From Craspedostauros australis (Eukaryota): a DNA stretch of 61,270 bases. Shown here piece after piece: positions 53,626-61,270 of this stretch. Position numbers and translations under genes: made by a program. The stretch's first letter is position 1. Each line of letters opens with the position of its first letter. Where the stretch lies: positions 1 through 61,270 of the forward strand of contig JALAGF010004571.1 of NCBI GenBank assembly GCA_030167865.1, read 5' to 3'. The notes under the pieces are model-generated. The model was not told the DNA's origin. It saw only the letters and a list, made by a program, of their open reading frames with translations, and searched no databases.

Positions 53626-56606
53626 TCATATGTCCGCAGATGGCTGGCCAACCTCGTATCCTTCCTGCTGCCCAGCAGGCCTCGCCGTGTCGCCGTCTGC
53701 TGTCGCCGTTCCTGTTGCGGACGCAGCCACGCTGTGCTGGGTCAGGAGGTCCTGGGCAGTCTGGTACAGGATGGCGTTTGGCGTTTCCACGGGAGGCGGG
53801 CCCAGGATCGCGACCGTGGCTCCGTGGTGCGCGGCTGGGCCCATCACGTGGATCAGCTGGGCTGGGGCAGCTTGGACGTTCGTTCCGATGGCGGTCGCTG
53901 TTGCGATGGGAGCTGCGGCCACCAGCGTCGTCGCCAGTGCATACGTGCCGTGGGCCATGGCAGCGGCAGCAGCACTTGCGGGGGATGCCATCATGCCATC
54001 CGTCGGTGCATTGCCATGTGCGTTGGCGTTCAGACCCGTGTTCATGTTCATGTTCGTATTCGTATTCGTGGTGTTGTTGCCAACGTCAGCGTGGTTTTGT
54101 ATCGTCTGTAGCTGTGACTGTGATGTTGGTGCGGCAGCTGTTGCTACTGTTGATGTTGATGATGATTCGCCAGCACTCTTGGATCCTTTCGCTTCCCCCT
54201 TGCCAGCATCCGAGCGTTTCTTGCGCTCCAGATCGCCACGTCGTTCGCACACGTTGTGGGCGAGAGTGTTGTGGAATCCAATCTCACGACCCCAAGCGAA
54301 TGCGAGGTCGCTGAAGTTTGCGTACGGGGTGCCGCCGCTCAGGAGCAGGATCTCCACCATCGCCTGTTGCATTGTGATTCGTTCCGTTGCGATACATTGC
54401 GTTTATTGGTTGTAGCATCGCACGAGGGAAGATGCGGCATCGGGGACAATGTGAGAATTGAGGAGGCATACGACTACTTGTCGGAACATCCGGGACAACA
54501 CTTGAAGTGCGTTGGCATGACACATCGCACAATCATCAAAACATGCACGAACAAGGTGCAACAATAGATTAAAGACCATAGAGTGCTCCTCATGTGGACA
54601 ACGTACCAACTGCCTTTCCCATGACTCCAGCTGCGTTCCCAAATTCTCGACGGGGTACAACCCGCGCGCACGGCGTTCGCTGTTGCGATGCCATCCCGGC
54701 TCCCGATCGATGCCATCGCGCAGGAATGCCACCAACGGCATGATAGGCACGTCGTCGGGTGCGCGTGGCGGGTCAAGCGGGTTGTCCTTTGCGGAAATGA
54801 GCACGGGCTTGCTGGATTGCAAGCTGGACGGCTTGTAAGCGATCGAAGATGGCAAGATGCTGTCGTACACGGAATCACCCTCCGGAGATGGTGGCATGGC
54901 TGTGCCGCGCCGTCCCTTGATCTTTCCCGGTGCCATGGATGGGTAGTTCGCGTCTCGCCAATGCCGCTTGCACATGCCCTGATGGGTGCCTTGCGCTTGC
55001 TTCTCGCAGCCTGCGACCTGTGAGGAGATGGTGCGTGCATTGGAATTAGTGGGATGGAAGAGCAGGCAACCGCTCAACGCGAAATATGTGAGTTTGCTTT
55101 CTTGTTTGCTTACTTGTTTCGACATGAGCAAGATGGCATCATGTACGTATTCATTCGTTGCGACAACACCACAGTCATGGTCGTGCGCATGGCTGCATCA
55201 GAGCATAGCAGCAGACATGTGTTTGTCCATCGACTTTGCTTGGAAGGGCTTTGACAACAGGAGGTCGGGCGTTATTCCGCGGCATCCAGTGGCATTCCAA
55301 GCAACTGGAATGATCTCGCAAACAGTGATGATGATGATGATGATGATGGTGGTGGTGGCGGCGATCGAGCATAGCGCAACACGATAGCACGATGGCATGA
55401 TAGCACAATAGGACAAAGCATGCAGCAAAACGCACAGTGTTCGAATGAAAACACCATTGCATGGCAACGTACCTTGCAACGCTTGGCCTTGGCCCCGTGC
55501 CGTTGGCACATGCCTTGCGATTTGATGACTTTCGTGCATCCAGGATGACGGCACAGGCGTCTCCTCTTGGACGGCGGCTCCTGCTGCGAAGCCATGGCCG
55601 GATCGAAGCGAACTTCATGATCCATTCCAGCGTTGGGAATGGCTTCGGCGTCCACGTTGTTCTGAACCATCTGCATGGCAAATCCTTTCGCTGCTGCGTC
55701 GATGTCTTCATCGCGCTCTGCTCTCTTTCCTCCAGTCTGTATCTCCGCGGGTTCGTTCTCCTGCAACGTGCCGGTACCTACTGGAGCGCACATGAGCACC
55801 CCTGTGCCGTCTTCTGCCTGTACTGGCGGTGGCGCAACGGGATGTGCAGTCATGATATGTGCATCATGAAGTTGCTGCTGTTGGTGTTGCTCCTGCTGCT
55901 GGTGTTGCTCCTGCTGTTGTTGCTGTTGGTGTTGCTGTTGTTGTTGTTGTAGGTCTTGGTGATGCGGCATCGACTCCTGTTGTTGATGATGCTGTTGCTG
56001 TTGCTCGTGTTGTGGATGATGTTGCACCTGCTGTTGGTGATGCTGTTGCACTTCCATGCCCATCGTTTGCACCTGAGGCTGCCCCTGAGGTTGCATCTGC
56101 ATGTGGATATGCTGTTGCTGATGTTCCTGTGCGTGCAGCTGCAGGGGTGTCTGATGATGCACCGGCATCTGCTGATCCTGGTGAACGTGGCGGCCATCAT
56201 GCTGTTCTTGTTGAAAGTGAGGCTGAGCAAGGGATGGGTCCTGTGCGTGCACCTGTACTTGTGCATGTTGCTGAAGTTGTGCATGTTGCTGAAGTTGTGC
56301 TTGCGGCTGCATATGTGTTTGTGCGTGTGCTTGTGCCTGAGCTTGAATCGCTGCTTCTTCGGGGGTCTCACCTGGCACGTGAGGTACTCCGGCTGGTGCA
56401 TGAACTGTTGAATGCATGGTGTTCTCTCCCATTCCCACGGAATCAACAGCCACAGCCATAGCTATGGCTGGAGAGACATCGCTGTTGCCATCGCCGTTGG
56501 TGACATGATTGCCATTGTGTGTGTTGCCATCGTGCACAGCCACCGCTGCATGCGGCACTGCTGGCTCCACCTGATCCATTTGACCCACGTGCTCTTCTGT
56601 TGACAT
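53626..56606 (-). CDS. Q/H-rich protein with two WRKY19-like C-x4-C...C-x2-H zinc-finger repeats; exons 56606-55473, 55017-54607, 54363-53626
   Basis: Spliced product reads CRHPGCTKVIKSQGMCQRHGAKAKRCK|VAGCEKQAQGTHQGMCKRHW, with an NLS-like KRRR and a polyQ/H N-terminus. Introns are phase-0 GT-AG. Confidence 0.82.
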
Positions 56607-57656: not shown

Positions 57657-57845
57657 TATTGATTCCAGTCCCGCACGTGACCCGACTGACCGGCGTACGC
57701 AAAGTGCGCACCTCGCGCCCACTTTCCTCCTAGAGCAGATCAAGACACTAGCAGGAGCCAAGACCGCAACTCCTCAGCTCAGCAATGTAATATCTCATAA
57801 TATTAGCGAACAACATTGATTCACACACTACTCGTCTTATTGACA
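57657..57845 (+). repeat. Putative 5' LTR (3' end ...ATTGACA at 57845; 5' end uncertain: TATTGAT 57657 or TGTCAAT 57400)
   Basis: Terminal CA lies 68 nt before the gag ATG. The partner LTR is outside the window, so the boundaries are inferred. Confidence 0.5.
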
Positions 57846-57859
57846 GTTGTTCGCTAATA
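57801..57859 (+). promoter_or_regulatory. Perfect 14-bp inverted repeat pairing the PBS position with an LTR-internal sequence (candidate self-primer)
   Basis: TATTAGCGAACAAC (57801-57814) is the exact reverse complement of GTTGTTCGCTAATA (57846-57859). Confidence 0.75.
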
Positions 57860-57913: not shown

Positions 57914-59077
57914 ATGGCCAACAGCCACAAGAAGATCCTCGCCACCTTTCCACAGGCAATCGTCGAACCCATCGTCGGGGTACCCACATACGAGTCCATC
58001 GCAGAACTCAATGTAGTCCTCAACGCCAATGCGGCCTCNGTNCACTGCCCNCTCGGAAACGGNCAGCTTGGATACCTGGTCCTCACCGTCTCCCGAGNGG
58101 TGTACCAAGAACACTCGGCGACAGCATTCGTCGTGCCGGTCAATCCAGGACCGCACCCGAACATCCCGAACGCAGCCACTGCAGCCCAGATCAGCGCCGC
58201 CACCAGCATCCACAAGGAACAAGAGCGCCTATGGAGAGAGTACCGCGCGGTCGACAATGCCCTCAAGCAGCAGCTTCTTGGCGCCATTGAAGACCAGTAC
58301 GTGCGAACTCTCCGCCACAACATCGTAGGGTACGCCAACGTCACGACACTCGAGCTGCTGACCCACCTGTACTCCACGTATGGCAAGATCACACCGCAAG
58401 ACCTCGACGAAAACGACAAGGCCATGAAGACCCCGTACAATCCGACGGCGCTGTTCGAAGTGCTCGTCGCCCAAATCGAGTCTGCGCGCGATCTTGCGGC
58501 AGCCGCCAAAGCGCCGTACGCAGATCACCAGCTCGTCACCACGGCATACAACCTGGTGTTCCGAACACAAGCGTTCCCCGAAGCATGCCGTTCTTTCCGC
58601 GCTCTCAGTGCCGCCGACAAGACATGGGCTCGCTTCAAGAAGGACTTCGCTGCAGCTCACCAAGACCTGCGCGAAACGCAAGCCACGACACAAGACGCCA
58701 ACTTCCAAGGAGCCAACGCAGCAATCACCTCCGCGGAGACTACAGACGCACTCGCCAACCTCGCATCCGCCACAGCCGCGGATCGCAGCACAGTAGCGCA
58801 GCTCACCGAGAGCAACGCCAACCTCGTCAAGCAATTGACAGAGATCACGGCGATGGTGTCCCAACTGCGAGCCAACGCAGCCACGAGCAGCGGCACCGGA
58901 AGCAAGAAGGGAGGGCGCAAGCACAAGCACAGCTCCTACTGCTGGACGCACGGATACAAGGTGGGCATCACGCACACCAGCGCGACGTGCATGAACCCAG
59001 CGCCAGGACACCAGAAGGACGCCACTCGAAGCAACACCATGGGAGGATCCACCGACGGCGCCAAGTCGAACGCATGA
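57914..59077 (+). CDS. gag: Gag protein of the copia element
   Basis: 387-aa ORF with a coiled coil and a C-terminal knuckle YCWTHGYKVGITHTSATC. It lies directly upstream of protease/integrase. Confidence 0.88.
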   Translation: MANSHKKILATFPQAIVEPIVGVPTYESIAELNVVLNANAAXXHCXLGNXQLGYLVLTVSRXVYQEHSATAFVVPVNPGPHPNIPNAATAAQISAATSIHKEQERLWREYRAVDNALKQQLLGAIEDQYVRTLRHNIVGYANVTTLELLTHLYSTYGKITPQDLDENDKAMKTPYNPTALFEVLVAQIESARDLAAAAKAPYADHQLVTTAYNLVFRTQAFPEACRSFRALSAADKTWARFKKDFAAAHQDLRETQATTQDANFQGANAAITSAETTDALANLASATAADRSTVAQLTESNANLVKQLTEITAMVSQLRANAATSSGTGSKKGGRKHKHSSYCWTHGYKVGITHTSATCMNPAPGHQKDATRSNTMGGSTDGAKSNA

Positions 59078-59146
59078 CAAGCACGGCAGGACCACAGTAA
59101 GCAAGTAGCACTCTCTGTTACTACTTCATCATCCTGTGCTCCTGCC
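59075..59146 (+). other. Candidate stop-codon readthrough signal (UGA-CAA-GCA + 3' stem-loop)
   Basis: TGA at 59075-77. GGCAGGACCACAG (59085-97) pairs 12/13 with CTGTGCTCCTGCC (59134-46), and inner AAGTAG (59103-08) pairs with CTACTT (59121-26). Confidence 0.7.
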
Positions 59147-61270
59147 CTCGCCATAGTTGACTCTGGTTGCACTAGTCATTTCCTGCGACCTGAAGATCCA
59201 TGCATTGGCCAAACGCCCGACGATAACCCGTTGGCGGTGTCGCTGCCTGACGGATCCAGCATCCAATCTTCCCACCGAGCCACAGTCAGCATTGCCAACG
59301 TGCCACAGCACGCTTGCACCGCACGAATTTTTCCGCAGCTTTCCAGCGCGGCGCTTGTGTCGGTGGGGCAACTGTGTGACCACGGCATGACAGTTGACTT
59401 CGACCAAGAATCCGTGAGAATTCGAAAAAACGGAAACACGATTCACACCGGTTGTCGGCATCAAGTTGACGGCATGTACCGCATCGACATCCAACCGCCG
59501 AAGCCCACATCGCCAAAAATGGCCAATCACGTCCATCACACGTCAACCAAGACGGAACTGGCCAAATATTACCACCAGTGCTGTTTCAGCCCCGCGGTAT
59601 CCACGTTCACGGCAGCCATCAAGAAAGGATTCTTTTCGTCTTGGCCAGGCCTGACCGAACAAATGGTGCGAAAATTCCTTCCACCTTCCACCGCTACCGC
59701 CGCTGGGCACCTCCGACAACAGTACCAGAACACGCAGTCCACGCGCAGTCACTGCAACCACGTCACCCAGTCCACCAAGAATCCCACGGAACAACGCGAA
59801 ATCTTCATGGATGTTTATCGGCCAACAGGCAAAATCTTCACCGATCAAACAGGCCGATTCCCAGTGACGTCAAGCCGTGGATACCAGTACATCATGGTGT
59901 TGTACGACCATGACTCCAACGCGATTCTTTCACGCCCACTGCGCAGTCGGCACGCAACGGAACTCACGCGAGCGTGTGACGAACTTTTGACGGTTCTCCT
60001 TCGAAGCGGAATGACACCGCGGTTCCACAGGCTCGACAACGAGGCGCCGAAAGAACTCAAGCACCTCATCGAGTCAAAAGGTATCCAGTACCAGCTTGTA
60101 CCACCAGGCATTCATCGGCGCAACGCTGCAGAGAGAGCCATCTCCACTTGGAAAGACCACTTCATCGCAGGACTGGCCACAGCCGACGAAGCGTTTCTGC
60201 TTCATCTGTGGTGTCAACTCCTCCCCCAATGCGACATCACGCTCAACCTGATGCGACCGTCGCGAGTCAACCCACACATCTCGGCACATCATGCCCTCCA
60301 CGGCAACTTCGACTTCAACGCAACGCCAATGGCACCACCAGGCACCAAGGCCGTCATTCATGACAAACCCAGCAAGCGAGCCACGTGGGCACCGCACGGA
60401 TCCGCCGGATGGTACATAGCACCAGCACTCGAGCACTACCAGTGCTACAAGGTATATTGCAACAAAACGAGGAAGATCCGAATCACCGACACCATCGAAC
60501 TGATGCCAAGCAAGTGCGCCATGCCCACACCAACCAACGCAGAGATGGCCATCAAAGCGGCAGGCGACCTCGCCACCGCACTCACCAAGCCATGCGCACC
60601 ACTCCGGTCCATTGGCGACGAGCAACTCGGAGCACTCCAGCAGCTCAGCGACATCTTCCAGCAGGCGCTCCCCGCGACGCCCACAGCGCCACTTCCGAGG
60701 GTGCACACCGAGCCACCTCCGAGGGTGCTCACCACGGCCAGCAGTGGCACCAACAACAAACGCGTCACCTTCGCGACGCCGGCGCGCACACCTCCGAGGG
60801 TGCCCCAAACCACACCGCAAGTCACAGACGACGAAGCCGACTCCGAACCAGAATCGGACGACGACGACGACGACGACGACAGCGCCAACACGGGAGCACC
60901 TCCCACAGGCCATTCCGCAACAACGCCACGCACACGACTGCGCACCGGCACCATCCAGCGCAAGCAATGGGCACGCGGAGCCACCACCGCAAACGCAGTC
61001 ATCGACGAACGCACGGGAACGGCATACGAATACCGGCACCTCATCGCTGGCAAGGTTCATGGCCACACCCCGCAACAATGGTACACATCCTTCGCAAACG
61101 AGATCGGGCGTCTCGCACAAGGCGTCGGAACCCGCATCCCAGCATCGGCGGCAACCAACACCATCTTCTTCGTCCCAAGATCAGCAGTACCACGAGATCG
61201 CACCGTCACATACGGCCGCATCGTCTGCGCCGTACGACCACAAAAAGCGGAAACACATCGCACGCGCCTC
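59078..61270 (+). CDS. pol: Pol polyprotein (protease, integrase, start of reverse transcriptase), partial; absent from the ORF track because it has no stop in the window
   Basis: Manually translated and open to the window end. Protease: IVDSGCTSHF (D at 59159) and LVSVGQLCD. Integrase: FTDQTGRFPVTSSRGYQY...RLDNE...HRRNAAERAI. RT start: WYTSFANEIGRLAQG...TIFFV...VTYGRIVC.VRPQK. Confidence 0.92.

Follow-up and report, generated by a model that had tools for sequence, protein, structure and literature searches.

Gag and pol at the contig end

The window, i.e., the whole stretch of 61,270 bp analyzed here, is an entire contig from the 65.9-Mb eukaryotic assembly of Craspedostauros australis. Its last 3.6 kb are occupied by the 5' portion of an LTR retrotransposon, whose pol is truncated by the contig end, the 3' end of the element being absent. 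The following features were located in this portion:

57657..57845 (+), 5' LTR of 189 bp, which begins with TA, ends with CA and matches both LTRs of the complete sibling copies
57801..57814 (+), LTR segment, candidate self-primer, 14 nt perfectly complementary to the primer-binding position and preceded by a conserved CAT(A/T)A
57846..57859 (+), primer-binding position directly 3' of the LTR, complementary to 57801-57814
57914..59074 (+), gag, 387 aa, ATG at 57914, with a C-terminal knuckle-like motif C-x3-G-x-H-x-C-x-H followed by MGGS
59075..59077 (+), in-frame UGA at the gag/pol boundary, candidate readthrough codon, present in 12/12 own-genome matches and 64/66 scorable metagenome loci
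59078..59084 (+), spacer CAAGCAC of 7 nt, starting with C and mostly unpaired (long-range pairing 0.13-0.36 at +1..+7)
59085..59097 (+), 5' arm of the candidate stimulatory stem, from folding and family comparison
59103..59126 (+), inner 6-bp hairpin within the loop (59103-59108 with 59121-59126), family-specific and not conserved
59134..59146 (+), 3' arm of the candidate stimulatory stem, from folding and family comparison
59078..61270 (+), pol with protease DSG at 59159, integrase and the start of RT, ending at the contig end

As had originally been predicted, gag ends in TGA, the next bases are CAA GCA, and pol continues in the same frame for more than 2.1 kb, that is over all 731 codons from 59078 to the contig end at 61270. 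No ATG precedes the protease motif: DSG is found 27 codons past the gag stop, and the first in-frame ATG (59387) lies downstream of it. Further landmarks of pol are the motifs at codons 254 and 319, which we take to be of the integrase type, and VDD at about codon 870. The RVT_2 profile matched pol with E 2e-07 and 31.3 bits, slightly below the Pfam cut-off of 31.6. For Gag no Pfam family scored above the cut-off, and neither Gag nor the protease was recognized by the Pfam and PDB searches; the Atlas cluster nearest to Gag carries the automatic name Gag. Complete siblings of 5.25-5.55 kb carry motifs of protease, integrase and RT in the order typical of copia, and in four of them direct LTRs of 188-300 bp with 99-100% identity were found together with 5-bp target-site duplications read from the flanks. 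In the six sibling copies examined pol is open over 1,263-1,360 codons, with one exception of 883. The window element is a young Ty1/copia LTR retrotransposon.

In a quick RT tree, the only RT phylogeny of this work and one flagged for long branches, the window clade formed one group on a long branch, separate from the other copia clades of the genome. The LTRs of the window family start with TA instead of TG, the sister family L026 having the TG...CA form. Three PPRV/LPRV repeats and an acidic run lie at 60700-60760 of the window, in the linker between integrase and RT, and relatives carry similar SPRV repeats. A Gln/His-rich host ORF with a WRKY19-type zinc-finger start, which probably continues past an intron, occupies 55275-56606 on the minus strand. 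The Atlas clusters closest to Gag and to this host zinc-finger protein are mostly assigned to Bacillariophyta, with few members assigned to a phylum at all and one of them an oomycete; a diatom is thereby indicated as the probable host.

Conservation of the stop codon

Within the own genome the TGA was kept in all 12 DNA matches (76-100% identity), and it is also present in family L021, of merely 42% protein identity. The four complete copies, whose LTRs are 99.0, 100, 100 and 100% identical, retain it between a gag of 386-387 aa and a pol open over 1,263-1,332 codons. A Gag profile search of metagenomes was used to extend the comparison; it yielded 89 loci, of which the best 80, with 27-53% identity in their best segments, were fetched. 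On the match strand 13 of these 80 had no recognizable knuckle motif and one ended before the stop, which left 66 scorable loci, in 64 of which a TGA was found 16-29 residues past the knuckle. The two scorable exceptions are L032, with a premature TAG, and L075, which has TGT at the site and is decayed elsewhere too. Among the 64 loci with TGA the protease motif followed in frame 0 in 57 and out of frame in two (L065, L105), and it was not found in five that are short, truncated, damaged or variant. On the minus strand of L082 a second element has TAG at the junction, with the protease motif in frame 39 codons on and the frame closing after 94 codons.

The protein clusters gave the same picture. 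Searches unbiased as to length revealed no fused Gag-Pol among the best 150 Gag representatives, none of which exceeded 518 aa, and no Gag in any of the best 120 RT relatives; 116 of the 118 knuckle-bearing representatives among those best 150 end at most 35 residues past the knuckle. A search for long forms yielded one fused cluster, P0121, of 1,618 aa, four records of which show W where the stop would be. This cluster is either a natural single-ORF family with TGG or the result of a gene caller reading TGA as Trp. With E <= 1e-30, the relatives comprise 2,092 Gag clusters formed at 50% identity. A scan of viral contigs gave no relatives among these.

The original prediction had taken the stop not to be a disabling mutation and had named a sense codon in most sibling copies as the sign of a copy-specific lesion; with TGA in 12/12 own copies and 64/66 relatives, its view is borne out. 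Elsewhere in the genome TGA is an ordinary stop, ending 4 of the 11 long ORFs of the window and pol in 3 of 7 copies, and each pol encodes its 9-14 Trp residues by TGG, since the frames are open under the standard code.

Reading frame and context across the junction

Seventy intact junctions (57 from metagenomes and 13 from the own genome) were reduced to 42 families less than 80% identical to one another (mean 54%); since these families are kin, p-values overstate their independence. In the stretch from the stop to the protease no stop codon occurs among the 1,461 codons of frame 0 of the 42 families, vs 92 and 156 in the other two frames, and when the spacers were shuffled, on average 8.6 of the 42 stayed open, with a maximum of 17 in 1,000 shuffles. 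The spacer has 17 different lengths, from 27 to 54 codons, all of them in frame, so that many insertions and deletions have preserved the frame of the gag stop. Constraint on the spacer at the protein level is mild (31 synonymous and 49 non-synonymous changes).

The stop is UGA in 42/42 families. It is followed by C in 33 (background 0.20), nine having another base there, and by CA in 24 (background 0.076); accordingly, the next codon is CAN (Gln or His) in 24/42, while CGG or CUA is found in 2/42. The 3' context originally proposed as the signal, CAR-NBA, did not withstand this comparison, as it occurs in 3 of 12 own copies and 5 of 42 families, and what is conserved instead is UGA-C(A). Type I (TMV-like) contexts are generally rare in the families (CARYYA 2/42, CARNBA 5/42), although the window copy itself fits CARNBA. 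Reinitiation at an overlapping stop-start was also considered and rejected: ATGA is found in 15/42 families, as expected from base frequencies, and its ATG is outside the pol frame.

Predicted stem downstream of the stop

In the window, 59085-59097 are predicted to pair with 59134-59146, starting 8 nt past the stop, with pair probabilities of 0.97-1.0. The 13-bp stem after a 7-nt spacer of the original prediction thus stands as to stem and spacer, but it consists of 7 + 5 = 12 pairs, the number 13 including one C.C mismatch. The enclosed 6-bp stem is likewise predicted in the window (0.60-0.67), but it is not conserved in the families. The fold of the window taken alone is weak (z = -1.84, 8 of 200 shuffles folding equally well), and only in comparison across relatives does the stem exceed chance by far.

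Unconstrained folding of the 42 junctions left positions +1..+7 mostly open, while +9..+13 paired with bases at least 25 nt downstream with a mean probability of 0.84-0.96; upstream of the stop, mean long-range pairing never exceeded 0.46. A 15-nt arm slid along the junctions gained 4.6-5.2 kcal/mol over shuffles for offsets of 6-9 and 3.7 for an offset of 10; no other offset tried gave more than 1.4. A helix through +10..+13 is predicted in 42/42 families, beginning between +6 and +12 (mode +8, 17 families), with a median of 7 stacked pairs and a median span of 65 nt (37-124). It outperforms dinucleotide shuffles in 34 of the 42 families and synonymous resampling in 35. The arms are family-specific in sequence: against the partner of its own family an arm reaches -14.3 kcal/mol and against those of other families -8.9, the best of 10,000 permutations being -10.6; at the level of single families the own partner ranks first in only 15/42.

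In the 10 copies of the window family 3 of the 24 arm columns are variable, vs 27 of 57 in the remaining spacer. The outer helix is paired in 94.7% of cells and the inner one in 81.8%, and RNAalifold drops the latter, which was therefore rejected as a conserved part. As the pairs of this family are mostly invariant, they were not counted as covariation. Across families, nearest-neighbor alignments based on sequence only, which are poor below about 75% identity, gave no excess of pair-keeping changes (10 of 24 double changes kept, 10.25 expected; 17 of 78 single changes, 19.5 expected). Of the conservation anticipated at the outset, the TGA and the predicted stem are therefore kept, but an alignment-based excess of compensatory changes is not seen. 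Pairing of the loop with downstream sequence, as in a pseudoknot, had a mean z of -0.13, with one of 42 families below -1.65.

Probable readthrough and other routes to Pol

Throughout a very large clade, and in copies that are young and intact, the predicted stem has been retained along with the stop, its frame, the C and an open spacer. On the strength of these sequence features the ribosome appears to cross the stop, and it is very likely that programmed UGA readthrough, the interpretation offered from the start and now supported by the TGA of 12/12 copies and 64/66 relatives, sets the Gag to Gag-Pol ratio. We infer the readthrough itself, the stem as its stimulator, its rate and the inserted residue as follows. 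Most ribosomes would halt at the gag UGA and release Gag, and a minority would insert an amino acid at the weak UGA-C and continue, giving Gag-Pol, which would then be cleaved by the protease. The stem, about 7-8 nt downstream, would sit at the mRNA entry channel and raise readthrough. By analogy with viruses, the residue would come from a near-cognate Trp, Cys or Arg tRNA. Since the inner stem is not conserved and a pseudoknot signal is missing in the families, an alphavirus-type model (UGA-C, spacer, stem) is preferable to the gammaretrovirus-type one with a pseudoknot; the original prediction had invoked both.

Pol could instead be synthesized independently of Gag, through splicing of the RNA, an internal promoter or (re)initiation, with the stem serving that route or a packaging-like role. 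A weak promoter at the junction of the Tca2 element (PMC2194720), an in-frame ATG in the spacer of 13/42 families and a YAG within 12 nt past the stop in 16/42 (11 expected) are in keeping with such a route. The remaining 29 families, that of the window included, nevertheless have no in-frame ATG before the protease, and the YAGs are scattered over six different positions. Moreover, separate synthesis has no need of a pol that stays in the gag frame from the first codon past the stop, whichever of the 17 lengths the spacer has, or of UGA-C or a constant distance from stop to stem, and we regard it as improbable.

Bypass of the stop by selenocysteine, or a readthrough dependent on a host factor or remote elements and not on local near-cognate signals, seems quite improbable. 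The host does possess a tRNA-Sec (anticodon UCA, 76.6 bits, L188:1500-1586, minus strand), the stop is almost always UGA, some selenocysteine sites also have a stem just 3' of the UGA (PMC3159437), and the Tca2 junction alone proved insufficient (PMC2194720). At the same time, none of six loci matched an Rfam family, those for SECIS among them, at E <= 1 (diatom forms of SECIS may escape Rfam), the site lies in a variable linker devoid of the conserved neighbors that would require Sec, and UGA-C with a stem is accounted for without it.

That the TGA is a disabling mutation of the window copy, or UGA a sense codon in the host, has next to no chance of being right: the TGT of the decayed L075 and the W of P0121, be it TGG or the gene caller's code, are outweighed by the TGA of all own copies (12/12) and of the clade (64/66 scorable), by its ordinary use as a terminator of window ORFs and pol, and by Trp codons that in pol are all TGG.

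Comparison with known recoding systems

The Type II signal of alphaviruses, furoviruses and tobraviruses (Firth et al., 2011, PMC3159437) combines UGA-C, a spacer and an extended stem and leads to a polymerase fusion; an alphavirus stem of the same geometry as ours was shown by mutation to lift readthrough up to 10-fold (PMC3159437). The junction described here resembles it in UGA-C and in a stem of about 10-12 bp that is set off from the stop by 7-12 nt and closes a long variable loop, and differs in residing in an LTR retrotransposon, in a next codon that is mostly CAN and not CGG/CUA (2/42), and in a structure spanning a median of 65 nt (37-124) vs about 100-175 nt (PMC3159437). The junction would work like Type II, but by the CGG/CUA codon rule it is not classed as a member. 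Neither retrotransposons nor diatoms are mentioned in PMC3159437 (0 occurrences).

In MuLV, a gammaretrovirus, the stop likewise lies between gag and pro-pol with a structure 8 nt downstream, and readthrough, with the purpose proposed here, yields about 5% Gag-Pol (PMC3159437, PMC2194720). There, however, the Type III signal is UAG-G with a compact pseudoknot, whereas here it is UGA-C and a pseudoknot signal was seen in 1/42 families.

Another copia element, Tca2 of Candida albicans (Forbes et al., 2007, PMC2194720), likewise has a UGA that splits gag from an in-frame pol, together with a predicted 3' pseudoknot. A 300-nt Tca2 junction gave 0.3% readthrough in yeast reporters, which is not above the control stop (PMC2194720), and this failure of a similar-looking junction is a caution against the readthrough reading. 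Tca2 represents a single yeast family with a proposed pseudoknot, while a simple stem with comparative support extends here across a clade.

The main text of the description of the CoDi diatom elements (Maumus et al., 2009, PMC2806351), as excerpted and its supplementary family list aside, deals with no readthrough, stop, context or structure, and the excerpted parts of PMC8147415, PMC3587641, PMC3601003 and PMC5009743 contain no description of such a junction. Within the coverage of our literature search, which lay outside most subscription journals, Repbase and GyDB, neither readthrough nor self-priming in diatom retrotransposons was described.

Probable self-priming and a second clade

Directly 3' of the 5' LTR of the window lies a site that is perfectly complementary over 14 nt to the LTR bases 57801-57814. 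Such a repeat, with at least 10 perfect pairs, was found in 24 of the 30 families whose upstream sequence was long enough (the other 11 of 41 were dropped from this count), shuffles averaging 6.2. In 24/24 the first base of its downstream arm is a G that directly follows CA or TA; in elements with both LTRs, the arm lies at the mapped LTR end. The LTR segment pairs through its 3' end with the base adjoining the LTR end, as expected geometrically of a minus-strand primer. This arrangement suggests that the copia clade is Tf1-like in priming itself. Tf1/Sushi elements are known to prime themselves, and the same has been proposed for the TAR copia elements of plants (Neumann et al., 2019, PMC6317226); the likeness to Tf1/Sushi, Tcn1 and the plant copia TAR elements (Houba, Osr-1) consists in a primer site complementary to the own 5' LTR, without a tRNA. 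In the excerpted text of PMC6317226 self-priming is not reported for algal or diatom copia elements, nor is it linked to a readthrough junction.

Another copia clade of the same genome shows a comparable layout: L139-L142, 4 of 40 other RT-bearing stretches, are gag-TGA-pol in frame with a hairpin. The context there is TGA-A (ATC, AAC or ATG), and the hairpin begins from about +7 or +8 and shows a paired C-G to T-A change. In the quick RT tree, with the long-branch warning given above, this clade stands apart from that of the window. Its sites are L139:1060, L141:850 and L142:1801 (plus strand), L140 (minus strand) and L193-L197, and a hydrophobic stretch of ~130 residues lies in it ahead of a DNCA protease-like motif. 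The other copia families L144, L145, L147 and L149 have single open frames of 1,746-2,558 codons, protease included. Copia elements typically rely on a single ORF, on splicing or on a frameshift. Frameshift layouts are listed in a review's passage on the 2003 survey by Gao et al.

On balance, it is somewhat more likely than not that a very large, probably algal copia lineage combines alphavirus-type UGA-C plus stem readthrough with tRNA-free self-priming, and that the second, distantly related clade reached gag-UGA-hairpin-pol separately. Mechanisms of this type are known in viruses; their use throughout a lineage of retrotransposons, together with probable self-priming, appears to be undescribed.

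Implications for the retrotransposon lineage

Genome annotation should treat copies with just this stop as likely intact and not score them as dead. Gene callers also leave the protease out of Pol: only 16 of 120 Pol records (the best 120 RT relatives) show its motif within their first 200 residues. Recoding research gains 42 natural variants that share one geometry and have unrelated stem sequences, and the sole studied gag-UGA-pol copia element, Tca2, is still unexplained. Since the layout is lineage-wide and the stimulator is predicted, the mechanism is directly testable in a transformable diatom. If true, LTR retrotransposons would have their first case of readthrough stimulated by an RNA structure throughout a lineage, its natural stem variants numbering in the dozens, and transposition of these elements could be tied to conditions that alter termination fidelity.
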